Shown here: piece by piece, positions 11,998-61,659 of the stretch | Layout of the letters: each line of letters opens with the position of its first letter | Numbering within the stretch: position 1 is the stretch's first letter | IMG/VR virus record: IMGVR_UViG_3300024999_000080 | Coordinates: 12,878 to 76,877 of that record | DNA length: 64,000 nucleotides | Origin: a virus | Reading direction: 5' to 3' (one strand) | Translations under genes and position numbers: made by a program | The notes under the pieces: generated by a model | Seen by the model: only the letters and a program-made list of their open reading frames with translations | What the model was told of the DNA's origin: nothing | Database searches by the model: none

Positions 11998-12621
11998 ATG
12001 TTTATTAATAAAATTGGATATCTTCATTTAGAAAAAGGATTGAATTGTCAAGATTTTGGTTTTGAGAGTGACAAGCATAAATGTATAATGGACGGTTGTT
12101 CAGAAGGAAAACATAGCGAAGTTGGTGCTAAATTATTTGCACATATGTTTTCAAAAGGATTAGATCCAATTGAATGTTTTGAAAAGTTGTCTGGTATATT
12201 TCCTGATTACGAGGATATAAGAGACCATATGTTATTTACTGTATTATTCGTTTCCCAAACTGATGAAGAATACATAGTTGATATTTGTGGTGATGGATAC
12301 ATAATTAAGCAAAAACTTGATGATTCGATTGAGTATGAAAAAATAGGAGAAGGTAATGCTCCAGAATATTATGCTTATAATTTTGTTTCTTCAGATCGTT
12401 TGAATAAGTATAAAGATGGTGTTGAATTCAAACATCACCTACTATCTAAAAGCGAATATAAGGCCGTAGGAGTGGCATCTGATGGCTTAGATTACATTCT
12501 TAATAGTCCTTTTAAGGATGAGTTTGAAAAGCATTTAATAGGAAGAAAAGAATTTGCAATCCGAAGACTAATCAATCGAGAACATAAATATTTTAAGGAT
12601 GATATTTCAATTGTAATTTGA
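11998..12621 (+). CDS. PP2C-like protein phosphatase (TerY-P type)
   Basis: NCQD, DGCS, CGDG, ASDG and DDISIV motifs. Confidence 0.82.
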   Translation: MFINKIGYLHLEKGLNCQDFGFESDKHKCIMDGCSEGKHSEVGAKLFAHMFSKGLDPIECFEKLSGIFPDYEDIRDHMLFTVLFVSQTDEEYIVDICGDGYIIKQKLDDSIEYEKIGEGNAPEYYAYNFVSSDRLNKYKDGVEFKHHLLSKSEYKAVGVASDGLDYILNSPFKDEFEKHLIGRKEFAIRRLINREHKYFKDDISIVI

Positions 12622-14339
12622 TTGAGGTGAAAGTGATGAATATAAGTGCTAAAATTCTAAAACAAACTCCATTAGCTGAAGGTGGAGAAGGTATTATATA
12701 TGATTTAGGGGATAATGTTCTTAAGGTCTATAAAGATTCGGTTGATAAGCAAGAAAAATTAAAAAAGGTTAAATTGTTGATATCTAAATCTTTACCTTCA
12801 AATATTATCAAACCTATTGATATTGCTTATGATTCACAGAAAAAGTTTATTGGTTATATTATGCCGAAAGCAGAAGGTGAAGACGTTAAGAAATTAGGCA
12901 ATAAGAAATATGTTAAAGTAAATAATATTAAAATCCAAGACATTAGTAAATTAGCATTAAAAATAAAAGAAACTCTCACAATTTTACATAATCAAAACAT
13001 TCTTATCAGCGACTTAAATGATGGCAATATATTATTCACCAAGGATTTTGAACCATATTTTATTGATGTTGATAGTTGGTCTATTGATAATATTAATTGT
13101 ACAGTTTGTATGGAAACATTTAAAGATCCTAAATTAGTTTCCAGTAATTTCACTAAAGATACTGATTCATTTTCATTTGCTGTGTTATTATTTAAGATGC
13201 TGACAAGACTTCATCCCTTCGGAGGAACAATGAATCCAGATATGGATATTATTCAAAGGATGAGTAAGGGCATATCAGTAATCGAAAATTCAAAAGTTAT
13301 TGTTCCAAAGAATATTAATAAGTGGGAATTTATGTCTCCAAAATTACTTACGGATATGAGAAGTATTTTTGAAAAAGGAAAAAGGTTTTTAATAGATCAA
13401 AATTTGTTGGATTTTGCTTCAAATTTGAAGTATTGTGATAAACATGAAGATTATTATTATAGCAAGTACAAAACGTGTCCTATTTGTGATGTAAGTGCTG
13501 TAATAATTCAAGCTCCTATACAAGTTGTTGGGAATGGATCTATTCCTTATATTGTTCTAATTGCTTCAAATGGTGTGAAAATGATATTAAATCTTGATAC
13601 ATTTATTGATGATAATGATTTTGTAATTCATAGCAGATCAAAGAAAAAAGTAGAATTAGTTAATGGTAATAGATATTATTTTTCTAATGATGGAGATATT
13701 GCTTTCACAGTTTCAAATATGGATATTGGCGTTAGTAATCAAAAAGGAACATTTATATTTGAGAAAATTAATAAGAGTAATGTTGTCGTGAAGAATGATA
13801 TTATTTACTATATTAATTCAAGTTGTAATCTTGTGGAATTGACTGTAGGTGATATTGGCAACTCATTAAGGGTAATTACTAAAACTTCTTTTAATTCATT
13901 TTTTGAAGTGTATGATAAAGACAATTATCTAGTTTGTAATATTTATGATGGTTTTAAAATTGTCAACATTAGTGGATATAATTATCAGATTAATGACAAT
14001 GATAAAATTGTTAATTATGGTATACACTTCGACACTATAAAGAATTTATGGTTATTTATTACTGAGGATGATAAAGGTAACTTTAAGACATTGATTTTTG
14101 ATAAGAATAAAGTAGTTTACAGTAGCGATAGTATAAAGTATCAAACTGATCTAGGGAATTTATGTTTTAGTGGTGGGGTAATATTTAGCCCTAGTGATAA
14201 GGTTATTAGAGGATTTGGTTACGAGAAGAATGTTTATAAGGATTTTCCTTGTGATGTGGTTAATGATGGATCTAAGTTAATTAGAGATGGTAGCAAGTTT
14301 ATTGTGATTAATGATAAAGAAGTTTATAGGTTGGGTTAA
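12618..14339 (+). CDS. Ser/Thr protein kinase with zinc ribbon and beta-rich C-terminal region (TerY-P type)
   Basis: EGGEG glycine loop, VLKVY, ISDLNDGNIL, IDVDS, HPF; C..H...CPIC. Confidence 0.85.
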   Translation: MIEVKVMNISAKILKQTPLAEGGEGIIYDLGDNVLKVYKDSVDKQEKLKKVKLLISKSLPSNIIKPIDIAYDSQKKFIGYIMPKAEGEDVKKLGNKKYVKVNNIKIQDISKLALKIKETLTILHNQNILISDLNDGNILFTKDFEPYFIDVDSWSIDNINCTVCMETFKDPKLVSSNFTKDTDSFSFAVLLFKMLTRLHPFGGTMNPDMDIIQRMSKGISVIENSKVIVPKNINKWEFMSPKLLTDMRSIFEKGKRFLIDQNLLDFASNLKYCDKHEDYYYSKYKTCPICDVSAVIIQAPIQVVGNGSIPYIVLIASNGVKMILNLDTFIDDNDFVIHSRSKKKVELVNGNRYYFSNDGDIAFTVSNMDIGVSNQKGTFIFEKINKSNVVVKNDIIYYINSSCNLVELTVGDIGNSLRVITKTSFNSFFEVYDKDNYLVCNIYDGFKIVNISGYNYQINDNDKIVNYGIHFDTIKNLWLFITEDDKGNFKTLIFDKNKVVYSSDSIKYQTDLGNLCFSGGVIFSPSDKVIRGFGYEKNVYKDFPCDVVNDGSKLIRDGSKFIVINDKEVYRLG

Positions 14340-14358: not shown

Positions 14359-16356
14359 ATGATCACTGACATTCCATGTCCTTACTGTAAAGGTACAGAT
14401 ATAAACATTGAAGAAGTAGTTTGGGTATCTTTTAATCAAGAAAATGAAGGATTAGTTGAAATTTTAAATTATTGTCAGACTTGTAAGAGTCAATATCCAG
14501 TATTGACAGAGTTTAAATATGAAGTTATTAAGAGTGAGTATAGGGAGGTTTAGATTTTTATGGATAAGGCATTTGAAATCCATGCCCATTGGGAAGAAAA
14601 TGGAGAATATTTTATTGATACTGATTATAGGCAATTGAGTACAATAAAGAAAACCCAATATGATAAAGCAGTAAAAGATGGTTTTGTTATTATTAAAATA
14701 GATGATGGAGATGTAATATAAAAATGAATATCGTTATTAATAATTGTATTGATTGTTCTTCACATAAGGTATTGCTAGATCCAGACCCTAATGATTGGTT
14801 TTGTGACGATGATGTTAAAGTTGTATGCTCTATAGATAATAGAGAAATTACATGTGCTTGTAGACCATATAATATTAGAAAAGAATGTGATATTCCTAAA
14901 TGGTGTTGGAAATTAAAATAAAGGAGTATTTTTGGAAATTAGTAAAATTAAAATCGTTGCAGGAGTAGGCTTTCAGGGTTCGGCACATGGCATAAAACAT
15001 GTCTTTCGAGGGATATTAAGGTGATTATATATTAAGGAGATGAAAATAAATGAGTTGTTATGCTTTTACATGTCAATGTTTTTATTGTTCAAGAGTTCAA
15101 TATGGTTGTAAAAGAGATACACCTAATAAATGTTCTGAATACAATTGTGGGAATGATGCAGTTTGTTTGCAAGTTTTACCGGAAGATTATTATATTAATC
15201 AATGTAAAAAGTTTGGTAAAGTTGAAAGTGATGTTGGATCTTGTATTGATTGTAGCGTAGAAAATAAGGATTTGTTTTATGCTTGTAGAGATGTTGGATA
15301 TTTGAAAGGTAAAAGTTAAGGAGGGTTAAATGCATAAAATAAAAGGGTATTGGAGTAAATTTGTTTTAATTCAAATGATAGTGATAATACTTTTATCTAT
15401 AATTGGATTACCTAAAAGTAATTTAAGTTTGTTCTTGTGGATGGGAATTATATTATTTGATTCAATAATTACTCATCCTATATGGTACGAAGAGGAGGAA
15501 AATAAATGTATTTAGCAGATGTAATTAAAAATTGCAAAGAAGGAGAAGTATATAAAGCTACTTTTGCAATTGATGAGCATTGGTATATTGCTAAAATAGC
15601 AGGGTTTATTTGGTATTGTGATGAGAATGGAAAAGCATTTGAAGATATGTCAGCAGTACCTTTGACTTATAGTAATTTAAGGGCAGAATATGAGTTAGTT
15701 CAGAAAGGAGCGTTTATATGAAAGAAAAATTAACTGGTATATTTCACAATGAATTTAAAAAGCATTGAGTAACTAAATTTATTAGAAATGGATATGTATT
15801 AATGAAATACAAATATCCAAAGGTTAAAATTCCTTTTACTTCTCCAATGGTGCGATGGGAAAATCTAAATCATTGCGGTGGATGGAGTATGTGCGATGAG
15901 AATGGGGTAGAATTATCAACACAAATAAATCTTATTCAAGATGTTGTTAATGGATTTAAACCTATGGGATTTTGCTATTCCCTTCATAAAGAACAAAAAA
16001 ATGAATTTATGAAGATTATTATTGAGTCTGGATTGCCTTATACTACAGATGAACTAGATTGGAAAAATCCAGATTTTCCAATAAGATATGGTTTCAATAT
16101 TTGCCAGCATGGAAAAATAGGTGATTTACTTGATATTGATGCTGTCATAGAATCATATAATTTATTAGATTTATCCCATGATAAATGGATTTATAATACG
16201 ATAAGAGTTAATCTTTTGAAAATCAAGGACAATAAATTGTCAAATTATCTTACAGATTGGGATTATGGAAATCCTAAAACAGTTATTGAAGCAGTAACAG
16301 TAGGACTTTTATTAGGATATCCAATTGAATCTACATTTGCATTAACGACTTCTTAG
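14359..16356 (+). other. Small hypothetical genes, several Cys-rich
   Basis: Co-oriented ORFs with RBSs. Confidence 0.6.
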
Positions 16357-16480
16357 AGTTGGAAGAGAATTGGAGGGGTGGGGTTATAATTATAAAAATA
16401 AATTTTATAATTATGAATAGGACAAAATGAAATTGTCTATAATATAATCACAAGGAAATAAAAAGGAGTGTGATTATATT

Positions 16481-16897
16481 ATGCAAAATGTAAGTGTAAG
16501 TGTAAGTGTAAGTGTAAATAAAGTTTCACAAGAGATAAAAAGAGGAGATATTTGGTTAGCAGAATTAGAAGGAAGTAAAGGTTCAGAAATGAAAATGGTA
16601 CGCCCCGTTGTAATCATTCAAAATAATTTAGGGAATAAATATAGCCCATGTTGCACTATAATTCCATTGACTAGTAAGGTTGGGAAACGATGGATGCCCA
16701 CTCACACAACCCTACATAAGACGGTTTGCTTATCAACTTTGAGTATTGCTCTCGCAGAACAGGTTGCAACGATTTCAAAGGAACGATTGACAAAATTTAT
16801 TGGAGTGGTCGAAAAGTCAGAAATAGTTGCTATTGAAGATGCTATTATGATTCAGTTGGGAATCAAACCAAGAAATAATATTGCGTATGCAAATTAA
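16481..16897 (+). CDS. MazF/PemK-family endoribonuclease with no adjacent antitoxin
   Basis: KRGDIW...GSE...RPVVIIQN..GN..SP...PLTS...PTH...EQ resembles B. subtilis EndoA; catalytic Arg/Thr retained. Confidence 0.9.
   Translation: MQNVSVSVSVSVNKVSQEIKRGDIWLAELEGSKGSEMKMVRPVVIIQNNLGNKYSPCCTIIPLTSKVGKRWMPTHTTLHKTVCLSTLSIALAEQVATISKERLTKFIGVVEKSEIVAIEDAIMIQLGIKPRNNIAYAN
16490..16513 (+). repeat. (GTAAGT)4 in-frame microsatellite encoding VSVSVSVS
   Basis: Read directly from the sequence. Confidence 0.9.
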
Positions 16898-16943
16898 TAA
16901 GAGGGAGAGATAAAATTTAATTGAGTGAATATAATATTTTAAC

Positions 16944-18497
16944 TTGGCAAAGGAGAATTGCCGAGTGCTGTTAACAAAGACGCTAACAATGAAATGGAGT
17001 GCAAATAATAAGGTATGGTTTGAAAGTAAGGGATATACTTTTACTAAATGGAAAGATGAATTTGAGATTAAGGTGGAAGATTTATCTGATGGTTCTGGGG
17101 CATTAGTTGATGTCCAATGTGACGGATGTGGAGAAATATTAACTAATATGAAATGGCAATCATATATAAGAAGTTCTAAGAAAGATGGTAAATATTATTG
17201 TAAAAAATGTTCTTGTAAATTATTTGATGGTGAAAATCAGAGAAAAACTAAGTTAAAAAGTAGCAAATCCTTTTACGATTGGTGCTATGAAAATTTACCA
17301 AGAGCAATAGCAAATTATATATTATCAAAATGGGATTATGCTTTAAATATCAATAAGAACGGCAATATAATAAGTCCTAAAGATGTTAGTTTTAGTTCTA
17401 CAGGTTTTGACGGTAAAGGATATTGGTTTAAATGCCTTAAATATCCTGAACATGGATCTGAACAGAAACGTATTAGTAATTTTGTTAGCGGAATGGGTTT
17501 AGGTAACGTTATTACTTGCATTCAATGTAACATTATTTCTATTACCCATCCACATTTAATAAAATATCTGGTAAATAAAGAAGATGCGAATAAATATTCT
17601 TTTGGTTCAAATGAAAAAATACCCATGAATTGTGTTAATTGTGGATATGAAAAAAAATTAAGTTTTAATAAATTAGTAAGTAGAGGTTTCCCTTGTCCAA
17701 GGTGTTCAGATGGTATAAGCTATCCTGAAAAATTTCTATTTTCATTCTTAGAACAATTAAATTTATATTTTAACTTTCAATTAACAAAAACAACTTTCAA
17801 ATGGTGTGGCAAATATAAATATGACTTTTACATAGAAATAATTAATGGAATAGTTGAGGCAGGAGGTTTGCAACACTATGACGATACTAAAGGTAGAAAT
17901 TGGGGAGCATCATTAGAAGAAATACAAGAAAATGATTTCGACAAGGAATGGATTGCTAGAATAAATAAAATTAAGAATTACATAATTTTAGATTGTAGAT
18001 ATTCTGATATGAAATGGATTAAGCAATCTATAATGAAGTCTAGGTTGCTTATATTAGGATTTAAAGAGGAAGATATCGATTGGCTAAAGTGTCATGAGGC
18101 GGGTTGTAATAGTTTGGTTAAAATTTCCTGTGATCTATGGAATAATGGAATGAAAAATACATCACAGATAGCAGATATAATAAAGGTGCATAGGGCTACT
18201 ATTGTAAACTACTTAAAACAAGGAGTTAAACTTGAATGGTGTGACTATGATCCTAAAATAGCGATGACTGGTAACTATAGTAGAAGTGTTATATGTATAA
18301 CTACTAGGGAGATATTTAATTCAATTGCTGAAGCAGGAAACGTTTATAAAACAGATTGTAGTAGTATATCAAAATGTAGTAAAAATAAAAAGAAATACTC
18401 AGGATTACATTCAGAAACGGGAGATAAATTAAAATGGATGTATTTAGTAGATTATGAGAATATGGTTAAATATCAAAATAATAATAAACCTTCATAA
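16944..18497 (+). CDS. Free-standing homing-endonuclease-like protein (zinc ribbons + PD-(D/E)xK-like domain + NUMOD1-like C-terminus)
   Basis: Multiple CxxC pairs, SYPEK, YDFYI...VEAGGLQHY, FNSIAEA. Confidence 0.7.
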   Translation: MAKENCRVLLTKTLTMKWSANNKVWFESKGYTFTKWKDEFEIKVEDLSDGSGALVDVQCDGCGEILTNMKWQSYIRSSKKDGKYYCKKCSCKLFDGENQRKTKLKSSKSFYDWCYENLPRAIANYILSKWDYALNINKNGNIISPKDVSFSSTGFDGKGYWFKCLKYPEHGSEQKRISNFVSGMGLGNVITCIQCNIISITHPHLIKYLVNKEDANKYSFGSNEKIPMNCVNCGYEKKLSFNKLVSRGFPCPRCSDGISYPEKFLFSFLEQLNLYFNFQLTKTTFKWCGKYKYDFYIEIINGIVEAGGLQHYDDTKGRNWGASLEEIQENDFDKEWIARINKIKNYIILDCRYSDMKWIKQSIMKSRLLILGFKEEDIDWLKCHEAGCNSLVKISCDLWNNGMKNTSQIADIIKVHRATIVNYLKQGVKLEWCDYDPKIAMTGNYSRSVICITTREIFNSIAEAGNVYKTDCSSISKCSKNKKKYSGLHSETGDKLKWMYLVDYENMVKYQNNNKPS

Positions 18498-18545
18498 AAT
18501 ATATAAGTAAATATAACTAAGATAAAGGAGAGATAATATAAATAG

Positions 18546-19166
18546 ATGGTTGAAACATTAATATTCAGTATTTTGTGCCTAAAAACAAAATTATATTTAA
18601 AGCTAGGCAAATTCCAAATACATAAAGAATCATATCTAGTTAAACCAATACTAAAACAATGGAGTATTTATCCGGTAATACTTATGTCATTAATATATTG
18701 TATTTTTCAATATATGATTTTAAACCATGATTATAGTTTTATACCATATCAAAAGATATTTAAAGATGCCTTGATCATGTCATACATAATATTAGGAGTC
18801 GATATTTTATTTAGGAATAAAATATATAAACCATTTATATTTGCTTGTTATAGTTTATTAAGTGGTTGTGGACTGAACGCTATTGTAATGCATTTTAACA
18901 ATAAAAAGATGCCAATTTTCCCGACATTTACTTATTCGACTGGCTATACACAGTATGATATGATTATAAATTCTTCTAAATATGGAGATTTTCATGTTCT
19001 TGGAGATCATACAACAAAATTGATATTTTTAGCTGATGTATTCGATGTCTGTGGGTTTTCAATATGGTCAATCGGGGATATTTTGGTCAGGGTATTTGCT
19101 TTTATGATGGTATATTATTCAGTTAAAGAGGTTAATAAAATACATAAGAATAAAATTGTAAATTAA
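18546..19166 (+). CDS. DUF5317-like membrane protein
   Basis: LNAIVMHFN.KKMP, LIFLADVF and SIGDIL motifs with several hydrophobic helices. Confidence 0.7.
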   Translation: MVETLIFSILCLKTKLYLKLGKFQIHKESYLVKPILKQWSIYPVILMSLIYCIFQYMILNHDYSFIPYQKIFKDALIMSYIILGVDILFRNKIYKPFIFACYSLLSGCGLNAIVMHFNNKKMPIFPTFTYSTGYTQYDMIINSSKYGDFHVLGDHTTKLIFLADVFDVCGFSIWSIGDILVRVFAFMMVYYSVKEVNKIHKNKIVN

Positions 19167-19179
19167 TAAATAAATATAC

Positions 19180-19208
19180 TTGCATTACATTCTTGCATAT
19201 GGTATACT
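19180..19208 (+). promoter_or_regulatory. Promoter of the receptor-agrD unit
   Basis: TTGCAT-17 nt-TATACT with extended TG. Confidence 0.7.
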
Positions 19209-19224
19209 TGTTTTAGGTTAAGAA

Positions 19225-20064
19225 ATGAATAAGAAAGAGGTAATACATATGCAAGGTGTAACAAATGCTTTATTGAATACTATTTTGGTAAGCATCCCAG
19301 AGGAATCATTTATTGTAATTATGACATTGGTTTTTTTAAGAAGATTTGATATGTTGGACATCAGAATGTGGAAACACAGTTTGAAATGGATCATGGTTCC
19401 AACCTTGCCCGTAGCAATAATGATAAACGTGTTTAGATATATAGTAATAATACCAAAACCATTAATGTCTTTAGCTTCATTTATATTAATGACAATTTTA
19501 ATAATATTTATGATAATAAAAAATAGTGTTGTTTTTGATAAAAAGTTATTATTTAAGACAATAATGTTTACAATATTAAGTTTTGTTGTGGTTGGATTAA
19601 TAGAATTATTATATTATCCTATTTCACTCTCCTTGTTACATAAACAGATGTCTTATTTTAATAATAATATCCTATACAATCTTTTATTAGCAATTCCTAC
19701 AAGAGTATTACAAATATGTATTGTGGCATTTATCATAATGAGGAAAAACAATGATATTGAGATAAATTTATTCAACACAATTGTGAGAAACAAGTTTTTT
19801 ACAAAAAGTTTTATAATGATGATAACTATTATGTTATTTGTAATAATTTATATGGGGAAGTTGCTAATGTTTGATAATATATTAGTGGAATTACAAGTCA
19901 TTGATCAATTGTTCATAGTTTTAATTGTTATAGTAACACCAATAATTTTAATTACTTGGTTCCTAATGTTTGTTAATTATTTATTAACAAAGGAAAAACA
20001 AATACAGCAGACTTACGAAAATCTTGTTATGCAAGATGACGTAATGCTTGATGTAGAAGATTAA
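19225..20064 (+). CDS. Polytopic membrane protein resembling an AgrC/VirS-type sensor domain, with no histidine kinase domain
   Basis: About 7 hydrophobic segments and a ~25-aa polar tail; no H/N/G boxes; directly upstream of agrD; likely start at MQGV after the GAGGT RBS. Confidence 0.55.
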   Translation: MNKKEVIHMQGVTNALLNTILVSIPEESFIVIMTLVFLRRFDMLDIRMWKHSLKWIMVPTLPVAIMINVFRYIVIIPKPLMSLASFILMTILIIFMIIKNSVVFDKKLLFKTIMFTILSFVVVGLIELLYYPISLSLLHKQMSYFNNNILYNLLLAIPTRVLQICIVAFIIMRKNNDIEINLFNTIVRNKFFTKSFIMMITIMLFVIIYMGKLLMFDNILVELQVIDQLFIVLIVIVTPIILITWFLMFVNYLLTKEKQIQQTYENLVMQDDVMLDVED

Positions 20065-20084
20065 AGTGAAAGGAGGTGAAATTA

Positions 20085-20201
20085 ATGAAAAAATACGCTA
20101 TCGTCGCTGGAATGGTTGCCCTGGCCGCTACAATGTTTACTAATGTTTTTGCTTCTTGGTTGGGTGCACATCAACCAAAGTCCCCTAATTGCATGAAATA
20201 A
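20085..20201 (+). CDS. agrD: AgrD-type cyclic lactone autoinducer propeptide (38 aa; not in the ORF track)
   Basis: AGGAGGTG RBS; MKKYAIVAGMVALAATMFTNVFA-SWLGA-HQPKSPNCMK has a hydrophobic leader, a 5-residue ring and the HQPxxP tail of clostridial AgrD; agrB lies 1 kb downstream. Confidence 0.88.
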   Translation: MKKYAIVAGMVALAATMFTNVFASWLGAHQPKSPNCMK

Positions 20202-20213
20202 TATTATCCTACA

Positions 20214-20243
20214 TATAGGGAGGGACTTCGGTTCTTCCCTATA
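20214..20243 (+). terminator. Hairpin after agrD with a C(UUCG)G loop
   Basis: tatagggagggac-ttcg-gttcttccctata. Confidence 0.7.
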
Positions 20244-20281
20244 ACCATAAAATAATTGTATAGTTAATATTTACATATTTG

Positions 20282-20311
20282 TTGACATTTTGCATATCTT
20301 TATAGTAAGAT
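20282..20311 (+). promoter_or_regulatory. Promoter of the HTH-mazF-agrB unit
   Basis: TTGACA-18 nt-TAAGAT. Confidence 0.6.
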
Positions 20312-20354
20312 ATTAATAAGGAAATAATAAAAAATTATAAATATCTTATTAGAG

Positions 20355-21158
20355 ATGAAGAGGAGATGTGTTATTATGTTAAACAAATTCTTTACTAAAA
20401 ACACCAATACCGAGGAAAATACCAAAAAAGATTTCAAAAAATTAGCTAACTATGTAATTCATGCCAAAGGTCATAGGACGATCAATGGATTTGCAGCAGA
20501 TATGAAAACCGACTCTGAATATCTAACTCTTGTTGTTAATGCAAGAATAAACTCTTATCCAGATATAAAATTTCTTAAAACCATCGCTGACAATTCTGAT
20601 GGTAGAGTATCTTTAAAGGATTTAACATTGGCGTGTGGGTATTCAAATTACACAAATAATGATATGGAACAGATAAAAAATATTGAAGTCAGAAGAGGAA
20701 CTTTTTGCTATGTTAGTTTGGGTGATGTCATAGATTCAGAGTATGGGGGAAATCGATTATGTTTAGTTATACAAAATGATGTAGGGAATCACTTCTCAAG
20801 CACTTCAATTATTTTACCTCTCACTAGTAGAAAACGTAGTAAGCTTCCCACCCACGTTGAAGTTGGGCCTAAAAATTGCGGATTGCCCCAAGAATCAATT
20901 ATTAGTTGTGAGCAAATTCGTTGTGTATCAAAAAGGAGACTTAGCCAAAACGGGATAGTTCAGAAGGTTTCAGAATGCCCTTCAGAAATTATGTTATTGG
21001 TTGAGGTTGCCATGCTGAAGGCACAAGGGGTTATTCATCTTAAAATGAATGAACAAGAAGCAGTTCAATATCTAATGAATATGAACAAGCAAAAAACATA
21101 TCAGTATCAAAATAATTATAATCGTAGTGCAAGTCAGCAGGTTGCCTTTGCACGATAA
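20355..21158 (+). CDS. XRE-like HTH domain fused to a MazF/PemK endoribonuclease
   Basis: N-terminal AKGHRTINGFA...YL....N....P....LK.IA......VSLKDL..ACGY; C-terminal RRG...SEYGG.R.CLVIQNDVGN.FS...PLTS...LPTHV...EQIR. Confidence 0.85.
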   Translation: MKRRCVIMLNKFFTKNTNTEENTKKDFKKLANYVIHAKGHRTINGFAADMKTDSEYLTLVVNARINSYPDIKFLKTIADNSDGRVSLKDLTLACGYSNYTNNDMEQIKNIEVRRGTFCYVSLGDVIDSEYGGNRLCLVIQNDVGNHFSSTSIILPLTSRKRSKLPTHVEVGPKNCGLPQESIISCEQIRCVSKRRLSQNGIVQKVSECPSEIMLLVEVAMLKAQGVIHLKMNEQEAVQYLMNMNKQKTYQYQNNYNRSASQQVAFAR

Positions 21159-21182
21159 AAGAAAGGAAGATTAAATAATTAA

Positions 21183-21806
21183 ATGAGTTTTATTGAAAAT
21201 GTTTCAAATTATTCTGCTAGGTGGTTGGCATCAAAAGTACCTAATGATAAATATCCTACAGTAGAAGATCAAATTGAGGTTTTTACCTATGGTTTTATGG
21301 TTATATGGGGATTTATATTTAAGATCATATTGATGGTATCATTAGCATATATCTTTAATATTATAATCCCTATTATAATATTAACATTGACTTTCAGTAG
21401 TTTAAGAATTATCGCAGGAGGATACCATTTAAAGACCTATAATCGCTGTATGATTATTAGTGCTTTGCAATTCATTGTATCAGCATTAATAATCAAACAC
21501 ACATATCAATATTGGCCTATCCAAAACATCTATTCTCTGCTATTCTTTTGTGTATTAACGACACTATATATAATCTTCAGATATATTCCAAGAGACACAC
21601 CCAACAAACCCATTATAGACCCTTTACAGATTAAAAAGTTTAAACGATGGTCATTATACTACCTTATCGCATGGACAGTTGTAATGACCATCTTCCTACT
21701 GTTTAATGTACATATAATTGTAATTGCAAGTTGTTTTGGGTTATTGTTGGAGCTTTTTAGTGTGGGTAGAATAGGGCAATCGATATACTCTAAGCTAGAT
21801 TCATAA
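21183..21806 (+). CDS. agrB: Accessory gene regulator B (autoinducer-processing membrane peptidase)
   Basis: YG near the N-terminus, LRIIAGGYHLKTYNRC (catalytic His/Cys), PRDTPNKP. Confidence 0.92.
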   Translation: MSFIENVSNYSARWLASKVPNDKYPTVEDQIEVFTYGFMVIWGFIFKIILMVSLAYIFNIIIPIIILTLTFSSLRIIAGGYHLKTYNRCMIISALQFIVSALIIKHTYQYWPIQNIYSLLFFCVLTTLYIIFRYIPRDTPNKPIIDPLQIKKFKRWSLYYLIAWTVVMTIFLLFNVHIIVIASCFGLLLELFSVGRIGQSIYSKLDS

Positions 21807-21906
21807 TTAAGTTTACTTATATCATTAAAAGGAGGTGATGTTTTATGTGAATTTAATAATATCAATAAAAAAATAATATTTAAATAGAAAGGACATTTAT
21901 TGCAAA

Positions 21907-22635
21907 TTGGAAACATATAAAGATTTAACTGGATTAGTATTTAATAATTGGACTGTTCTAGAATTATCGAACAGAACAAATAAGAAAGATGATAGATATT
22001 GGAAATGCCGTTGTAATTGCGAATATAAAACAATTAAACATGTAGCAGAAAGGGCATTGTCTTTTGGCACATCAAGAAGTTGTGGTTGTTTACTAGGAAA
22101 AATACCATCTAAAAAAATTGCAAAGGTTAAACCTGATAAAATATTAAAACCTCCAAAAGACAAAATAGTTAAACCTAAAATCGTAAAACCTTTAAAAATT
22201 CTAAAGAAAAGAATTTATAAAGTAAAAATATCTGATAGTAAAGAAATTAAAATATCATACAACAAAAGAATAATGAGCATTTATAGCGGAATGAAACAAA
22301 GATGCTATAACCCTAAAGCTAAAGGTTTTAAATATTATGGGGGCAAAGGAGTTGTTATTTGTGATGAGTGGTTAAATGATAGAAAGTTATTTTATAATTG
22401 GGCAATAAACAATGGATATTCTGATGAATTAACTATTGACAGAATAGAAAATGATGGGAATTATGAACCAGACAATTGCAGGTGGACTACTTGGGAAGAG
22501 CAAGCCAATAATAAATCTAATACTGTATATTATAGATATGAAGGAGAAATTAAATCTTCATTGGATTGGTGCAAAGAAACTTGGTTAACTTTTGAAACTT
22601 TAAAGAACATATTTGATATACATATCCTGCATTAA
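21907..22635 (+). CDS. HNH homing endonuclease
   Basis: WKCRCNC, SCGC, MKQRCYNP, YGGKG...CDEW, TIDRIENDGNYEPDNCRW. Confidence 0.85.
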   Translation: METYKDLTGLVFNNWTVLELSNRTNKKDDRYWKCRCNCEYKTIKHVAERALSFGTSRSCGCLLGKIPSKKIAKVKPDKILKPPKDKIVKPKIVKPLKILKKRIYKVKISDSKEIKISYNKRIMSIYSGMKQRCYNPKAKGFKYYGGKGVVICDEWLNDRKLFYNWAINNGYSDELTIDRIENDGNYEPDNCRWTTWEEQANNKSNTVYYRYEGEIKSSLDWCKETWLTFETLKNIFDIHILH

Positions 22636-22661
22636 GAATAGGCGAACAATTTAGCACAAAA

Positions 22662-22678
22662 TGTCGAACATATGTACT
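22662..22678. promoter_or_regulatory. Overlapping Spo0A-box-like TGTCGAA and LexA-box-like CGAACATATGTACT
   Basis: One mismatch to GAAC-N4-GTTC; located upstream of the 22809 gene and the repressor block. Confidence 0.35.
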
Positions 22679-22808
22679 ATTTTTGTTATGATGTTTCTTG
22701 TATAGTAATTTTCCCTATGATATAATATTATTAAGGAGGTATTAAGAGAGTCGAGGTGTTATTTGTAGAAATTACCATAAATTAAAATTAAAGGAGAAGT
22801 GAATTATA

Positions 22809-23165
22809 TTGAATTATTGTAATACTTCTAATGAACAATCCATATGGGTAATTAAAGACCAAGACGGTAACTTCGCTCACAGGAATAGCATTGGCAAGTC
22901 TGGAAAGAATACTTACCTATACATATCTTTTAAAACATTTTCTCCTGAATGTAAGGGATATATAGATAAAGAAAGTGCTGAATCCGCTTTACTTGAGTTA
23001 AATAAAAGAAAGCATATCATGGGATTGCACAATTCTTTTAATTTAGAATATAATATCTTAAGCGAAATGACTAAACTGCACAGGGAATTTCAAGGTGAGA
23101 ACATGGTTTTATACGAGATGGCAAAATCTGATTGTTCAGATTTCCCAATATCAAAAGCGATGTAA
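22809..23165 (+). CDS. Hypothetical protein
   Basis: RBS plus 118-aa ORF followed by a hairpin at about 23185-23221. Confidence 0.6.
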   Translation: MNYCNTSNEQSIWVIKDQDGNFAHRNSIGKSGKNTYLYISFKTFSPECKGYIDKESAESALLELNKRKHIMGLHNSFNLEYNILSEMTKLHREFQGENMVLYEMAKSDCSDFPISKAM

Positions 23166-23241
23166 TTATGCACATATAATTATAATGAACTGCACTGGTC
23201 GCGTCGATAGGTGTGGTTCATATAAAAATAAGTATAATTTC

Positions 23242-23270
23242 TTGACATTAGAGTAATAATTGTATATAAT
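23242..23270 (+). promoter_or_regulatory. Consensus sigmaA promoter of the putative repressor operon
   Basis: TTGACA-17 nt-TATAAT. Confidence 0.85.
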
Positions 23271-23308
23271 GATGTTAATATTATTTTAATGTGAAGGGGT
23301 GATATTTA

Positions 23309-24667
23309 ATGCTTAAAGAAAAATCAGTTGAATTGATCCAAGAATTAAATCCATTAATCGTTAAATATTCTAGCAATGACAAAGTAAGGAAAATAATTTT
23401 AGATGAGTTCTCTAAGAGGAATATGAGTGGTCGTTTAGCACTTTCTATCCTTAATGAGAAAAGGGCATTATCAACATTAGACATTGATGAAGGTAAAGAT
23501 TTAGTATTATTATTTGTTTTTACAAATGCAATGTATGATGCATTAAATTTTAAAACAGATGATGATTCTCCAATTTTAGGAGATATCGATGAAGTATTAA
23601 GTATTGTTCCAAGCAATTTCTTTAATGAAATAGAAATGCAGAATATGGAAAATTATAAAGAGGAGAAAAGAGTAGAGACGAAAAAGCAATATGTGTTTCA
23701 TAATATGCTTCGTGCGGCTGATGGGCATTATAAAGGTTTAGATCATGCTAAACATCTTGCAGAAATATATGCAGAAAATGAAATTATTTATAATTTTAAG
23801 AATCAACGTGATCCGCATATTGATATTTATGGAGAAAAGAGAATTCAACTTGATAAAAACAAAGTAGAACGAATAATGAATAGACTGCTTGAAGGAATTC
23901 AATTTTCAGATGATATCAAATTAAATATACTTCATGATGGTGAAGATGAATTATATTTTAATGAAAAAACTGGAGATTTAACCTATATTTCTGGAAGTAT
24001 TAATATATTTGATGGTTATCATAGACTCATAGCTAATTCTTTAGCTATCGCAAAAAATGCAGAATTAGAGTTTAACTGGGGGTTAGTAATTACTAATTTC
24101 AGTGAGAATAAAACATTAGAATTTATGACCCAAGTTAATGAGCAAAAACCCATGAAAAAAGAGCATATAAAGAACCTAGATTCTTCAAGATTGGGAAATG
24201 TTGTAGTAGATGCAATTAGAGACATTGGTACTAGTGAATTTGGTCAGAATATTAAAGAATCAGATGCAGAATTGAAGTTTTCTGGTATGACAAAAAAGTC
24301 TACTTTAGCTATTAGTATAGAAGAATGTTATAAGGAAAAACTAACCAATAGACTTCAAGCAAAGCCCATAGCAAAGCATATTGCTAACGTTATGGACTAT
24401 ATCATTGGATTGAATGTTGAAGAGTTTATAGAGCGTCCTGACGCTTCTCAGACATATATCAACCACAAGAATATGTTCTCTGGATATGTTGCTTTATCAG
24501 AAAGATTATATGATGTAAAGAATTGGGAAGACTTATTAGAAGAAATTCTTAATCAAATTGATTTCAGTGTTAAAAATCCTTTCTGGAAAGATATTGGAAT
24601 ATCAGATTCCGATATGAAAAAATCTACCAGAAATAACCTATATAAATTCTTTCAGAAATTAGTTTGA
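23309..24667 (+). CDS. DGQHR/DndB-ParB-like protein (SPbeta YopQ-like)
   Basis: YNFKNQR, IFDGYHRL, F.QVN..KP; size and position directly before an integrase-fold gene. Confidence 0.6.
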   Translation: MLKEKSVELIQELNPLIVKYSSNDKVRKIILDEFSKRNMSGRLALSILNEKRALSTLDIDEGKDLVLLFVFTNAMYDALNFKTDDDSPILGDIDEVLSIVPSNFFNEIEMQNMENYKEEKRVETKKQYVFHNMLRAADGHYKGLDHAKHLAEIYAENEIIYNFKNQRDPHIDIYGEKRIQLDKNKVERIMNRLLEGIQFSDDIKLNILHDGEDELYFNEKTGDLTYISGSINIFDGYHRLIANSLAIAKNAELEFNWGLVITNFSENKTLEFMTQVNEQKPMKKEHIKNLDSSRLGNVVVDAIRDIGTSEFGQNIKESDAELKFSGMTKKSTLAISIEECYKEKLTNRLQAKPIAKHIANVMDYIIGLNVEEFIERPDASQTYINHKNMFSGYVALSERLYDVKNWEDLLEEILNQIDFSVKNPFWKDIGISDSDMKKSTRNNLYKFFQKLV

Positions 24668-24686
24668 TTAATATATTTAATAAGGG

Positions 24687-25742
24687 GTGTTTAATATGTC
24701 CATCAATGAAGTTAACGAAGAATTGCAAGATGAAGAGGTAGTATTTGAGGTTGATTCAGAAGTTAAAAAGGAGTTTCTAGAAAATCAATTAAAATCTACT
24801 AGAAGTTTCTACACTTATGTCCTCAAAAGAGCAGATGAATTTGAAACACAGGTTGGCAAGAAAATTTATGACTTCAATATTGAAGATCGTGATGAAATGC
24901 TAACTGTTCAATTCAAGAATAAGAACAAATGGACGTTTCAATCTGCTTTATCTCCTTTAAAAACTTATGTTGACTTCTGTATATCTAAAAGTTTAGTTAG
25001 ACATAATGAGAACAGATTTATGACCATTCTTCCTGCTGATTATAAGGATTATATTAATGACCAAGCACAATGTAATTCTTATATTCCTTTATCTAAATCT
25101 AGAGAACTTCAAAAAAGGTTGAAAAATGATCAAGATAAATTGATTATAGAGTTATCTAGTTTGTCTGTCAGAGGAAGAACTGAAAAGGGGAATACTCTTG
25201 AAGAACTCGTAAATTTAAAGGTTAAAGATATTAAATGGAAGACTAAAGAATTATATCTTACTAAAAACAATGGTGAACAAAGATATATTGAAACTGATGA
25301 TTACACATTAGGTTTACTCAAACGAGTTATAAATCAAACTTTCTATGTCTCTAATAATGGGTTAAAATCTAAGAAAAATGAGGATGGTATTTATGAAGAG
25401 ACTAATAGAGGTAGGGCTATAAGTCCGACTGAATATGTATTTAGAGTTCCCGGAAAGAACAGATTAGGTAAAGTAGATTATCAATTTTTCACTAGCAGAA
25501 TTCAAAGGATGCAAGGTTGGTTAGAAGCTCCTTATTTGACTAGTTCGAATTTATACTTCTCAGCGATTTTAGACTATGCAAAAGAGAAGATGGATGAAAA
25601 AAAGGCAAAAGGAGAAAAATGTGAATTAACCAGAGAAGACTATATTCAAATTAATGAGCGATTTGAGTTTGGTGAAAATGGAGAAAAATATGTATTCAAA
25701 ACCAGAGATTTAGTTAAAATGTATTTTGGTAATGGAGAGTAA
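24687..25742 (+). CDS. Tyrosine-recombinase-fold protein, probably a catalytically inactive repressor (SPbeta YopR/MrpR-like)
   Basis: SAM-like N-terminus, VRG...EELVNLKVKDI box I; the H-x-x-R box II is replaced by SNLYFS. Confidence 0.6.
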   Translation: MFNMSINEVNEELQDEEVVFEVDSEVKKEFLENQLKSTRSFYTYVLKRADEFETQVGKKIYDFNIEDRDEMLTVQFKNKNKWTFQSALSPLKTYVDFCISKSLVRHNENRFMTILPADYKDYINDQAQCNSYIPLSKSRELQKRLKNDQDKLIIELSSLSVRGRTEKGNTLEELVNLKVKDIKWKTKELYLTKNNGEQRYIETDDYTLGLLKRVINQTFYVSNNGLKSKKNEDGIYEETNRGRAISPTEYVFRVPGKNRLGKVDYQFFTSRIQRMQGWLEAPYLTSSNLYFSAILDYAKEKMDEKKAKGEKCELTREDYIQINERFEFGENGEKYVFKTRDLVKMYFGNGE

Positions 25743-25747
25743 ATATT

Positions 25748-26152
25748 ATGAAAAATACACTTTTAGAAATGTGGAAAAAATACAATTTACTTCTCTCTTT
25801 TAAAAATGAGATGAATAAACGCGGATATCCATCAAAGAGTCTGTATAGTATTGAAACACAAATGAGTGTTTTGATGCTATTGATTGAAATCGAAAGTATA
25901 AATGTTTTAGAAACCTTACTAAAAGGCAAAACTTATTTCAGATTATTAAAGAAAATTAACAGGGGATTTGAGTATTTATATGAAATTGTAGAATCTCCAG
26001 AGGACTGGGTATTAAACAAAATTGAAAATGATGTTGATGCATGGATTGATTCAAATGTATTAATTTTTACATGCAAAAGTTCTACTGCTGTATTTAGTAA
26101 GATATCACGCAAAAGTGATGGAGCAAAATATATTGATGGAAAATTTCAATAG
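25748..26152 (+). CDS. Hypothetical protein
   Basis: ORF in the same operon. Confidence 0.55.
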   Translation: MKNTLLEMWKKYNLLLSFKNEMNKRGYPSKSLYSIETQMSVLMLLIEIESINVLETLLKGKTYFRLLKKINRGFEYLYEIVESPEDWVLNKIENDVDAWIDSNVLIFTCKSSTAVFSKISRKSDGAKYIDGKFQ

Positions 26153-26588: not shown

Positions 26589-27449
26589 ATGGTTCGAAAG
26601 AATTATAGGTCTGTAGACACCTATGAGATGGATGATATAGAAGTTTACTCACTAGTCAAAAATGGCAGTCTAAGAGCATTCCCTTCGGGGTTTTGGGAGG
26701 GAGTTGCAGGTCTTCAAACTGCTAAGAAAATTCTAAAATATGTTTTCGAAAATCTTTTAAATTGGTCTATTGAAGATATCAAGGCTAAAACCACTAGAGA
26801 GTTGTTTGAAGAATATAAATTAGTTGGAATGGTTAGCACTACATTCGATGGTAGCATGTATATCGCCATTGGCGAAACTTATCCTGAACTTAAAGAATGG
26901 GCAGATGAATTATATCAAACAAATGAACATGCTGATTTTGTTCATAGGAGATATTCAGATGATGAATTAATTGGGATTATTCAAGAAAAAGCAGAAGATT
27001 TAAAGAGAATTCCAAAAGGTGTTGACATGAAAGCACCTAGTAGTGGAATTTATAATCGGAGATTTGGTTCATGGGAGAAATCTTTGATCAAGGCAGGTTT
27101 AATCAAAGATATCTATAAAAACGTTGATTTTGAAAAACATTCGAAGGAATCAGTAATTTCTAATTTAAAAGAATTATTTGCAAGTAAAGAAAGAGTATTA
27201 GACAAGAAAGAAATACTTTCTATTTATCCAGAAGGATTAATCAAAGAATATTTTGGAACTTATAATAACCTTGAGAAAGTTATTGTAAGTGAGTATACTA
27301 AAAAGGATCTTATCAAAATATTAAAAAAGAAGAAAGAAAAATTAGGTAGAATTCCAAACAACAAAGATATGAAGTTTCCAATGGCTATTGTGTTTATAGA
27401 TAAGTTTGGATCTTGGCAGGAGGCGATAGATAAATTGGAGAAAACTTAA
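26589..27449 (+). CDS. DUF4046-like protein with homing-endonuclease-associated (FGSW) repeats
   Basis: FPSGFW, Y.FENLLNW and repeated LGRIP...FGSW..A units. Confidence 0.6.
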   Translation: MVRKNYRSVDTYEMDDIEVYSLVKNGSLRAFPSGFWEGVAGLQTAKKILKYVFENLLNWSIEDIKAKTTRELFEEYKLVGMVSTTFDGSMYIAIGETYPELKEWADELYQTNEHADFVHRRYSDDELIGIIQEKAEDLKRIPKGVDMKAPSSGIYNRRFGSWEKSLIKAGLIKDIYKNVDFEKHSKESVISNLKELFASKERVLDKKEILSIYPEGLIKEYFGTYNNLEKVIVSEYTKKDLIKILKKKKEKLGRIPNNKDMKFPMAIVFIDKFGSWQEAIDKLEKT

Positions 27450-58407: not shown

Positions 58408-58944
58408 ATGGCTATAAAGGTTATAAAGGAAAAAACACCTAAAAAGTTAAAATGTATTGTGTGTGAAGAAATGTTTTTAAAAGAAGAAACAATTATTAAA
58501 AGTCAAAAAAGATATTGCAAAGTCTGTTTGGAACTTAAGGGAGAAGAATCTGCTCTGTACAAAAATGATTGGGATTTGCTGTTTGAATACATATGTAAAT
58601 TATATAATATTGATAAGCCTACAGGCATGATGTTCCAACAAATGAAAAATTATAGAACAGACTATGAATATACTAATATTGGCATGTATTATACTTTACA
58701 ATATTATTATAAGATTTTAGAAAATGATGTGTTAGAGGATACTGGACTAGGAATTATACCTTATTTTTATGACAAAGCAAAGAAGCATTATAATAAAATG
58801 TTTAATCTTCAAGATATAGCAGAAGAGTTTAAAGGAGAAGAGAAATCAATTCAAATAAAAACTAAAATTGCTGATAAATTATCAATTGCTAAAACTCCTT
58901 TGCCCTTGAACTTTAACTGGGAGGAGCAAAATGAAGACAACTAA
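58408..58944 (+). CDS. Zinc-finger replication accessory protein (possible helicase loader)
   Basis: CIVC...YCKVC, GM.YTL.YYY, GIIPYFYD; coupled to the helicase gene. Confidence 0.55.
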   Translation: MAIKVIKEKTPKKLKCIVCEEMFLKEETIIKSQKRYCKVCLELKGEESALYKNDWDLLFEYICKLYNIDKPTGMMFQQMKNYRTDYEYTNIGMYYTLQYYYKILENDVLEDTGLGIIPYFYDKAKKHYNKMFNLQDIAEEFKGEEKSIQIKTKIADKLSIAKTPLPLNFNWEEQNEDN

Positions 58945-60514: not shown

Positions 60515-60516
60515 TA

Positions 60517-61659
60517 GTGGACAGAGACGAGTTAATGGAGTTGGTGACAACAGAAGATGTTGTTGAAATTTTAAAGGACTTAGGTTCTGGAAGTCCAAGA
60601 AAAGATAAAAACAATGACAACGCATTACTTTTTTCAACCGTGTGTCATGGAGGAAAAAGTCATAAACTTTATTATTATATAGATAGTAAGTTCTTCAAGT
60701 GTTATACTTCATGTGGTTCAATGAGTCTTTTTGATTTAATTATGTCTACCAAAAATATTATTTTTCAAGAGGCATTTGCTTATCTTTGTAAATTTAAAAA
60801 TGTAACCAATTTTAATAAAAAGAAAAAAGGTTTACAAAAGAGAGAGGTTGAAAATAAGGATTTAGATTTTTTAAAGCTTCATCTTCACAAAAAAGAAAAA
60901 CAATTAGTAAAATTACCTTCGTACAATAAATATATATTAAATATGTTTGATGATTATTTGCCTATATCATGGCATGATGAAGGAATTACAGATGAAATTG
61001 CCGATATATTCCAAATAAAATTTTATATGAATCAATTCAAGTGTATAATTCCCCATCTTGATATTAATGGCAACTTAGTAGGTATAAGGGCAAGGAATTT
61101 CTTACAATATCAAGTGAGTTCAGGAAAGAAGTATATACCTGTGACTATTGAAAATCTCACTTATAGATATCCTATAGCCTTTAATTTTTATGGCATATGC
61201 CAAAATCAAGAAAACATTAGAAAAATAAAGAAAGCAATTTTACTTGAGTCTGAAAAAGCGGTTATGCTTTACGGAAGTTATTTTGGTCAAGAAAACAACA
61301 TAAGTCTTGCCCTATGTGGAATGTCATTTTCATTATATCAAAGGGATTTATTGCTTTCATTGGAAGTAGAAGAAGTAGCAATTTGTCTTGACAAACAATA
61401 TCAAATAGAATCAATTGATGATGAGAATATAGACAAAAACTCTAAAGCGTGGAAAGAGTATGAGAATTATATAAAAGGACTAATCAAAATATCTGAAATG
61501 CTTATGCCATATTGCAATGTTTCCATAATAGTGTGTTGGGATGAACGTATTGGCTACAAAGATTCGCCGATAGACTTTGGAAAAGAAACATTTGAAGAAT
61601 TATATAGAGAACGGCATTACATAGATGATTTAGAAGAACTGAGAGAAATGATAAAATAA
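60517..61659 (+). CDS. DNA primase (zinc finger + TOPRIM)
   Basis: VCHG...KLYYY...CYTSCG, IIPH...GIRAR, ESEKAV, CLD, KDSPID. Confidence 0.85.
   Translation: MDRDELMELVTTEDVVEILKDLGSGSPRKDKNNDNALLFSTVCHGGKSHKLYYYIDSKFFKCYTSCGSMSLFDLIMSTKNIIFQEAFAYLCKFKNVTNFNKKKKGLQKREVENKDLDFLKLHLHKKEKQLVKLPSYNKYILNMFDDYLPISWHDEGITDEIADIFQIKFYMNQFKCIIPHLDINGNLVGIRARNFLQYQVSSGKKYIPVTIENLTYRYPIAFNFYGICQNQENIRKIKKAILLESEKAVMLYGSYFGQENNISLALCGMSFSLYQRDLLLSLEVEEVAICLDKQYQIESIDDENIDKNSKAWKEYENYIKGLIKISEMLMPYCNVSIIVCWDERIGYKDSPIDFGKETFEELYRERHYIDDLEELREMIK

Follow-up and report, generated by a model that had tools for sequence, protein, structure and literature searches.

An agr-type peptide cassette with two mazF genes upstream of repressor-type genes: a candidate communication system of large Clostridia-type phages

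How does a phage make use of an agr-type peptide system that lacks the histidine kinase and the response regulator of agr and carries genes for MazF-type ribonucleases instead? This question is raised by a locus in a 64,000-nucleotide stretch of viral DNA (hereafter the window), which covers positions 12,878 to 76,877 of the phage record IMGVR_UViG_3300024999_000080 from IMG/VR. The record is 76.9 kb long and 44% complete according to CheckV; the window has a G+C content of ~29% and all of its genes lie on a single strand. In the locus the gene of a peptide precursor (agrD) and the gene of an AgrD-processing peptidase (agrB) are accompanied by the gene of a protein with seven transmembrane helices (7-TM gene), a gene for a DUF5317 membrane protein, a stand-alone mazF gene (mazF1) and a second mazF fused to a helix-turn-helix (HTH)-like domain (HTH::mazF). 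To our knowledge, arbitrium, a system of Bacillus-type phages only, is the sole well-studied case in which phages talk to each other about lysis and dormancy. Judged from its sequence, the cassette described here is a strong candidate for such communication of a second kind, beside arbitrium. We give an even chance to the reading that this conserved cassette serves peptide communication and decision-making, in that a high level of a peptide lactone lets MazF act and the repressor is favoured.

All elements of the original prediction, namely mazF1, an endonuclease-like gene, the DUF5317 gene, a polytopic membrane protein gene, agrD, a hairpin, HTH::mazF and agrB, were recovered on the plus strand at the positions given below. 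Searches of IMG/VR with AgrB and HTH::MazF yielded 25 loci from ~15 distinct phages; homologues of HTH::MazF with a length of ~260 amino acids numbered 58. The order DUF5317 - 7TM - agrD - HTH::mazF - agrB was kept in 18 of the 19 loci found via HTH::MazF at protein identities of 31-80% (36-70% for DUF5317 and 60-71% for AgrB among relatives), and in most relatives mazF1 preceded the cassette. Thus, in these 18 related phage loci both mazF genes are linked to agrB and agrD, a conservation on which the prediction had been made to depend. Among 50,697 deposited phage genomes no match was obtained by DNA or AgrB-protein search. The cassette belongs to a clade of large (~120-230 kb) Clostridia-type phages.

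The gene agrB (21183-21806) encodes a membrane peptidase of 207 amino acids. Its match to PF04647 (E 3.4e-35; 121.5 bits versus a cut-off of 23) extends over residues 26-193 and covers the whole peptidase. The sequence ...AGGYHLKTYNRC... carries a GGYH...C motif in which a His and a Cys are ~7 residues apart. We take H77 and C84 to be the catalytic residues of S. aureus AgrB; the same roles in the phage protein are assigned by analogy only. The gene agrD (20085-20201) is preceded by the ribosome-binding site AAGGAGG and encodes a putative autoinducing peptide precursor of 38 amino acids (TIGR04223, 19.6 bits versus a cut-off of 19). It has the layout expected of a short AgrD precursor, in which a hydrophobic leader is followed by a Cys or Ser at five residues' distance from the cleavage point and then by a charged tail that contains Pro. 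The predicted product contains the five-residue Ser-lactone ring SWLGA, which is followed by HQPKSP, and this type of layout was common to 15 phage and 24 bacterial agrD loci.

In all 15 distinct phage loci agrD was found between the 7-TM gene and HTH::mazF, and all 15 predicted peptides differed in ring or tail, with Ser as the ring residue in 14 and Cys in one. Co-variation was analyzed by Mantel tests over 13 loci, in which the peptide was represented by an 8-mer of three tail and five ring residues. Peptide distance correlated with 7-TM distance (r 0.61, p 2e-4) and with the distances of HTH::MazF (r 0.49) and AgrB (r 0.49), whereas no correlation was observed with the yopQ-like gene located 1.5-2 kb away (r 0.04, p 0.29). 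Consequently, the 7-TM gene, agrD, HTH::mazF and agrB travel and diversify as a unit that is independent of the flanking backbone. The co-variation of peptide and candidate sensor fits private signalling channels.

A histidine kinase and a LytTR/AgrA regulator had been reported as missing from the window, and this absence extends to the whole 76.9-kb record and four relatives, in which HATPase_c_5, HATPase_c and LytTR (PF04397) gave no match at E <= 1. Two of these relatives, with sizes of 227-230 kb, are 100% complete by CheckV; agrC or agrA elsewhere in the genome, which had been named beforehand as a finding that would speak against the prediction, was present in neither of them. The phage cassette shares with the agr systems of staphylococci and clostridia the AgrB peptidase, an AgrD whose (S/C)x4 ring precedes (H/Y)QPxxP and a distant AgrC-type membrane domain, and in both cases sensor and peptide diversify together. 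In contrast to agr, it lacks a phospho-acceptor His, an ATPase domain and a LytTR regulator, its gene order is 7TM - agrD - HTH::mazF - agrB, and its output is presumably an RNase and not a transcription factor.

The closest phage comparison is the agr3 locus of the C. difficile myovirus phiCDHM1, which likewise comprises phage agrD and agrB genes without a response regulator (PMC3901668). This locus had been cited as an agrDBC cassette with an intact kinase. Its AgrC indeed has a HATPase_c domain, but no receptor domain has been identified in it, and a response regulator was not detected (PMC3901668). Thus, phiCDHM1 offers a kinase-domain protein without an identified receptor domain, whereas the cassette described here offers a candidate sensor domain without a kinase. 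Moreover, phiCDHM1 has no MazF, and the two loci show no detectable sequence match to each other. The architecture had been thought to be undescribed, and the full-text literature in fact yielded neither a phage agr cassette with MazF nor a kinase-less AgrC family.

The position of the cassette in the phage genome connects it with lysis-lysogeny decisions. Downstream of it, a yopQ-like gene was followed by a yopR-like gene in 18 of 19 phage loci. The window's yopQ-like (DndB-like) gene (23309-24667) encodes 452 amino acids and was matched to SPBc2 yopQ by tblastn with E 1e-19 at 78% coverage (DndB, E 1.5e-6). The adjoining gene (24687-25742) encodes a candidate MrpR/YopR-like repressor with a predicted integrase fold, as suggested by its matches to MrpR_N_CB (E 1.5e-12) and, by BLASTP, to SPbeta YopR (E 4e-7). 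MrpR is reportedly the master repressor of SPbeta. In SPbeta the gene order is aimR - aimP - (aimX) - yopM-P - yopQ - yopR, and the yopQ-like and yopR-like genes adjoin in the same order here. The agr/MazF cassette, which lies directly upstream of this pair, thus occupies the place of arbitrium in SPbeta. A perfect sigma-A consensus promoter (TTGACA-17-TATAAT, 23242-23270) was found 39 nt upstream of the yopQ-like gene and is the sole 12/12 promoter match within 16300-23400. Between the cassette and the yopQ-like gene lies an open reading frame (ORF) of 118 amino acids (22809-23165), which was present at the same place in six relatives (L039, L040, L042, L043, L050 and L055) and had no Pfam or PHROG match. 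The corresponding place in SPbeta is occupied by the small yopM-O genes and aimX.

In the arbitrium phage phi3T, lysogeny is promoted by the activity of MazF, and MazF in turn is blocked by AimX, which is under arbitrium control (PMC10769878). The cassette resembles the arbitrium systems of SPbeta and phi3T in that a phage peptide system stands directly upstream of yopQ/yopR(MrpR)-type genes, MazF is part of the circuit and many peptide variants exist. The match is one of genomic position only, with agr-type and MazF-type ORFs at the corresponding place. Arbitrium uses a linear hexapeptide imported by Opp, a cytoplasmic TPR protein as receptor and a MazF borrowed from the host; in contrast, an AgrB-cyclised lactone and a candidate receptor in the membrane are predicted here, and MazF is encoded by the phage in two copies, one of them fused to an HTH-like domain. 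No MazF inhibitor of the AimX/YosL type was identified.

A further link between MazF and the repressor-type genes was found in the distribution of MazF target sites. The cleavage site of Gram-positive MazF is U^ACAUA, and UACUUA is cut weakly by the enzyme of S. aureus (bioRxiv 10.64898/2026.08.06.743204). The window contains no UACAU within 22921-26067, a stretch that covers the yopQ-like and yopR-like genes. When 14 loci were pooled, UACAU was the most depleted of 662 5-mers in the yopQ/R-like genes versus the rest (15 versus 67). Under synonymous shuffling 42.5 ± 5.5 occurrences were expected in these genes and 17 were observed, and none of 300 shuffles was as low. The depletion amounted to 3 versus 16.8 ± 3.4 in 13 pooled yopR-like genes and to 15 versus 25.6 ± 4.3 in 15 pooled yopQ-like genes. 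For the hexamers it was 1 versus 10.4 (UACAUA) and 2 versus 14.8 (UACUUA), while UACUU was borderline (41 versus 51.4, with 7% of the shuffles as low). The control words, namely the reverse complement, UACAA, AACAU and UUCAU, were not depleted, and 192 neighbouring genes contained 253 UACAU with 219 expected. Hence, the yopQ/R-like genes are purged of MazF sites via synonymous codon choice. For the SPbeta yop genes alone no measurable site depletion was found, in a test of low power.

The cassette genes themselves were not depleted in UACAU in the pooled synonymous shuffling. The DUF5317 message was enriched (31 versus 21.5 UACAU pooled; 5 versus 2.2 UAC(A/U)UA in the window), as was that of HTH::mazF (20 versus 13). 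A stem-loop of 13 bp (20214-20243; dG -19.1, z -3.3) without a U-tract follows agrD and was not classed as an intrinsic terminator. Its alignment by RNAalifold contained 10 pairs, of which 6 showed compensatory double changes and none was broken. The canonical Gram-positive MazF site UACAUA (20210-20215) abuts the 5' base of this hairpin. At least one UACAUA was present in the spacer between agrD and HTH::mazF in 13 of 15 loci, with a total of 20 sites versus ~2.7 expected from the window frequency, and in 8 of 12 aligned loci the site was directly adjacent to the stem, while the 5' flank was variable. The site at the hairpin base and the excess of sites in the DUF5317 and HTH::mazF messages suggest that MazF may exert feedback on the cassette, which in the case of these messages is possibly self-limiting.

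A second UACAUA (20272-20277) stands just 5' of the -35 element of a promoter-like site upstream of HTH::mazF and recurs 60-85 nt after the first in six loci. This promoter-like site (TTGACA-18-TAAGAT, 20282-20311) matches the consensus in 10 of 12 positions. Promoters had been proposed before HTH::mazF and before the polytopic gene; the former was recovered, but the consensus scan gave none in the gap between the DUF5317 and 7-TM genes. In this AT-rich DNA promoter-like matches of the scan were overall not above shuffled expectation.

A genome scan with the 7-TM family revealed 24 bacterial loci in Clostridia, among them loci of Ruminiclostridium cellobioparum, R. hungatei, a Peptococcaceae metagenome-assembled genome (MAG) and Bacillota MAGs. 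In all 24 an agrD ORF was located directly downstream of the 7-TM gene; agrB was found just upstream of the 7-TM gene in 13 and a convergent XRE-HTH gene just downstream of agrD in 13 of the 24. One locus (L037) contained two tandem 7TM - agrD pairs and another (L015) two tandem 7-TM genes. The bacterial loci are L014-L037, with L023:5318-7980 as an example of the agrB - 7TM - agrD unit, and in a Ruminiclostridium-like lineage among them the unit is followed by a gene for a Spo0E-like phosphatase. Phage AgrB was 32-43% identical to Clostridia agrB products encoded beside 7-TM genes. The pairing of 7TM with agrD and the neighbouring agrB in Clostridia thus indicate that the phage cassette is a rearranged bacterial agr-type unit. 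In phage and bacterial units alike agrD is directly preceded by a gene of the 7-TM family, with agrB adjoining and an HTH gene directly 3' of agrD in the mentioned fractions of the bacterial loci. They differ in the cytoplasmic part of the 7-TM protein, a helical tail of ~60 amino acids in bacteria versus an acidic tail of ~27 in the phage, and in the HTH gene, which in bacteria is a gene of its own, runs convergently and encodes an XRE regulator with no MazF domain. As far as found, the bacterial agrB - 7TM - agrD - XRE unit has not been described in the literature.

The bacterial units are also the basis of an explanation that we consider unlikely, in which the phage manipulates its host: the captured agrB - 7TM - agrD genes would drive or jam an agr-type circuit of the host, for example one of sporulation or stationary phase, and the MazF proteins would be mere neighbours that act in host shut-off or anti-defence. 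The 24 Clostridia loci with their partners agrB and XRE, and the one lineage with its Spo0E-like gene, speak for such a circuit, as do the several agrB genes and AgrC-type kinases that hosts carry and the proposal that phiCDHM1 works through host regulators (PMC3901668). However, HTH::mazF stood between agrD and agrB in 18 of 18 loci and co-varied with the cassette. The peptides of close phages are highly diverse, a pattern for which private channels are a better fit than mimicry of one host signal. Host manipulation also leaves the repressor-adjacent position and the purge of sites unexplained.

The stand-alone gene mazF1 (16481-16897) encodes an EndoA/MazF-type endoribonuclease of 138 amino acids (PemK_toxin, E 6e-26). 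Compared with the MazF structures of S. aureus and B. subtilis it gave E values of 1e-22 to 1e-18, and the catalytic Arg (VRP) and Thr (LTSK) were aligned. HTH::mazF (20376-21158; the ORF opens at 20355) encodes 260 amino acids from the conserved start, with a PemK match at residues 113-217 (E 4.7e-21). Its AlphaFold2 (AF2) model, with a pLDDT of 80, consists of a five-helix N-terminal domain, an EndoA-type MazF domain and a tail. The top Foldseek match was B. subtilis YdcE/EndoA (1ne8; 40% identity, E 4e-12, TM 0.87), again with the catalytic Arg and Thr aligned (R25 and T48 in B. subtilis). The exchange T48A abolishes the RNase activity of B. subtilis MazF (PMC10769878). Thus, in comparison with the MazEF/EndoA-EndoAI systems, the phage proteins have the PemK/MazF fold, 37-40% identity to the B. 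subtilis and S. aureus enzymes and both catalytic residues. They differ from these systems in that no adjacent MazE was found, one copy is fused to an N-terminal HTH-like domain, both proteins have similar ends and both genes are part of a peptide-signalling cassette.

The ends of the two proteins share the motif (V/I)A(Y/F)A, which appears as ...N(I/V)AYA(N) in MazF1 and as ...Q(V/L)(A/V)(F/Y)A(R) in HTH::MazF (...NIAYAN and ...QVAFAR, respectively, in the window) and is conserved across relatives, including L004, L008 and L009. This C-terminus resembles an ssrA-type degradation tag and may mark the toxins as short-lived; alternatively, it may serve in docking. Regarding the antitoxin, no ORF was present between an upstream gene of 184 amino acids and mazF1, and Pfam, which is non-exhaustive for novel antitoxins, detected no antitoxin family in the neighbours. 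The claim that MazE is missing therefore stands for the neighbouring ORFs, whereas its extension to the wider window was not confirmed by this non-exhaustive check.

Two intact MazF proteins with no adjacent MazE would also suit a prophage defence or exclusion module, in which the MazF proteins, DUF5317 and the 7-TM protein would constitute a toxin-based abortive infection or superinfection exclusion system and the peptide would serve in kin recognition or as a trigger of the extracellular death-factor type. Repressor-proximal prophage regions often hold defence genes, and site-free repressor genes would shield the resident prophage during the response. MazEF also reportedly suppresses lytic spread in arbitrium phages (reference 39 of bioRxiv 10.64898/2026.08.06.743204). 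Nevertheless, we regard this module as rather improbable. No known defence family was found in Pfam or NCBIfam (a PADLOC search was not made), a toxin without an antitoxin on the phage genome requires some other safety catch, and the tight, co-varying coupling of peptide production and sensor exceeds the needs of exclusion.

The 7-TM gene (19249-20064; the ORF opens at 19225) encodes 271 amino acids from the conserved start and had no Pfam or NCBIfam family match. Its AF2 model (pLDDT 84.7) shows seven transmembrane helices and a long C-terminal helix, and the protein terminates 27 residues past the seventh of them. Invariant residues of the family are E26 (in SIPEE), E127, R160 and P239, and the acidic C-terminal tail is very conserved. 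An exhaustive profile search found 229 representatives; the 150 listed had lengths of 47-326 amino acids, too short in every case to include a kinase domain. Foldseek against the PDB and a wide VIA-align search with the model returned generic helical matches only (E > 0.6; Z <= 7.1). In the ESM Atlas the third-ranked cluster was named sensory kinase (0.88), which was taken as a lead only.

For comparison with AgrC, 16 HATPase_c_5 kinases were collected from five Clostridia genomes that carry 7-TM loci. With only the 215 N-terminal kinase residues hhalign gave a weak probability of 45% (P 2e-4), yet this was above reversed and block-shuffled controls. With the first 330 kinase residues the probability was 83% in local (P 9e-6) and 87.5% in global mode (P 4e-7), and the alignment was collinear over 262-268 columns, while the reversed control gave P 0.085-0.1. 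The identity between the 7-TM family and AgrC-type kinases was ~13%. In the best-scoring stretch the cytoplasmic tail of the bacterial 7-TM proteins is paired with that section of the dimerisation domain which follows the RHD box, and the 7-TM sequences have no His there; nor does a conserved His, as would be required for an H-box phospho-acceptor, occur anywhere among the invariant columns of the family. The 7-TM family is thus proposed, with moderate confidence, to be an AgrC-type sensor with a degenerate, His-less dimerisation stub and without a catalytic domain. The gene had been called receptor-like, and a distant relationship to the AgrC sensor without kinase agrees with that name, at a strength (hhalign 83-88%) that is moderate rather than conclusive.

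That the 7-TM protein is no receptor at all and serves as a partner of AgrD in processing, export or immunity (as a second protease or an exporter), while a host kinase or nothing senses the peptide, appears quite improbable. In favour of this reading, the gene directly precedes agrD everywhere and in bacteria stands between agrB and agrD, the charged residues E26, E127 and R160 are intramembrane and invariant, and structure searches yielded no receptor match. Against it, the family is collinear with the AgrC-type sensor and dimerisation region above controls and lacks a conserved His or Cys of the types known from AgrD peptidases. Moreover, several phages have a second copy after agrB without a peptide gene of its own, a setting in which an additional receptor could serve better than an additional processing enzyme. 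This second copy was full-length in L038, L039, L042 and L044-L047, was only partial in L049 and is absent from the window.

Based on these observations we propose the following working model of the communication cassette. AgrB would cleave AgrD and cyclise it to the five-residue lactone SWLGA with a short tail; genes and motifs are present, and the chemistry is that of the agr family. Outside the cell the peptide would be sensed by the 7-TM protein, as homology and co-variation suggest. A 7-TM sensor without a kinase must signal through protein contact, and from the genetic linkage the likeliest contact target would be the adjacent HTH::MazF, with or without MazF1 and DUF5317. A complex prediction for the 7-TM tail (residues 244-279) and the HTH::MazF dimer scored 0.00 and gave no answer, neither for nor against binding. 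Active MazF would then cut UACAUA-type sites in phage and host mRNAs and spare the observed site-purged yopQ/yopR-like messages. Since site-bearing messages would be removed, the repressor would be favoured, and high peptide would bias the infected cell to repression or dormancy, a direction taken by analogy with phi3T (PMC10769878). The cassette would possibly combine known kinds of systems, agr signalling and arbitrium-type decisions, with a new mode of signal transfer. A more far-reaching version, which we put forward tentatively and hold to be possible though not likely, is a phosphorylation-free branch of agr. In this version the lactone-bound, kinase-less receptor would directly release or restrain the phage MazF, the map of cut sites would convert the density signal into a decision between lysis and dormancy, and receptor and XRE regulator would form an undescribed quorum-sensing output in Clostridia.

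Several points weigh against the decision cassette. We infer all of its central steps, namely peptide production, sensing by the 7-TM protein, passage of the signal to the phage MazF proteins and the outcome of lysis versus lysogeny. The Mantel signal may come from block inheritance of four adjacent genes alone. The N-terminal domain of HTH::MazF belongs to no detectable family, and hhalign gave no significant match between it and the XRE neighbours of the bacterial units. No antitoxin was identified that would hold the two intact MazF proteins in check. The site sets follow other Gram-positive MazF enzymes, and the specificity of the phage proteins may differ. A k-mer scan of the whole window showed no strand-specific avoidance of UACAU or ACA, and per-gene site tests in this window only have little statistical power. 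Moreover, a host EndoA-type MazF was present in 321 of 399 sampled Clostridia genomes, and host MazF by itself could have selected the purge of sites in the repressor genes. Finally, evidence for a temperate lifestyle is thin, and lysogeny is deduced from the repressor-type genes alone. No large serine recombinase, the SPbeta type of integrase, was found in five phage records, and the only tyrosine recombinases were short ones of 187-193 amino acids in three relatives. The full-length HTH::MazF gene, used as a marker of resident prophages, was absent from the 399 sampled Clostridia genomes, which contained only stand-alone host MazF.

The DUF5317 membrane protein (18546-19166; 206 amino acids) matched PF17248 with E 5.5e-19 (69 bits versus a cut-off of 25), and no paper mentioning this family was found in the full-text literature. 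Between mazF1 and this gene an endonuclease-like gene is inserted (16944-18497; 517 amino acids), which has zinc-finger character and a weak DUF4379 treble-clef match. It was absent from the same position in L040 and L041 and found elsewhere in L040 and L043. In L038 its place was taken by a different endonuclease-like gene, a homologue of the window ORF 21907-22635 (242 amino acids), which itself lies where several relatives have the second 7-TM paralogue. Endonuclease-like genes thus shift position or come and go among relatives and are mobile insertions, a sign of active mobility of the homing type around the cassette. Within 11 kb the window contains three such genes (16944-18497, 21907-22635 and 26589-27449), one of them with an HNH_repeat match (E 7e-28). 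Upstream of the cassette a protein of 573 amino acids (12618-14339) carries an N-terminal Ser/Thr kinase domain (Pkinase, E 1.2e-10); at 84-89% identity in relatives it is much better conserved than the cassette genes. Genes for an NAD-dependent DNA ligase, a DnaB-like helicase and a primase were assigned by PHROGs at 35562-37565 and 58931-61659, and no tRNA or tmRNA genes were found in the 64-kb window.

If the proposed function is true, peptide-guided phage decisions have evolved more than once, and RNA cleavage of the MazF type is a recurrent decision device. The presence of a kinase-less AgrC-like family beside agrD in many Clostridia raises the prospect that agr signals are read without phosphotransfer. 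Peptide variants that set the dormancy of Clostridia phages could become tools for steering prophages in laboratory strains.

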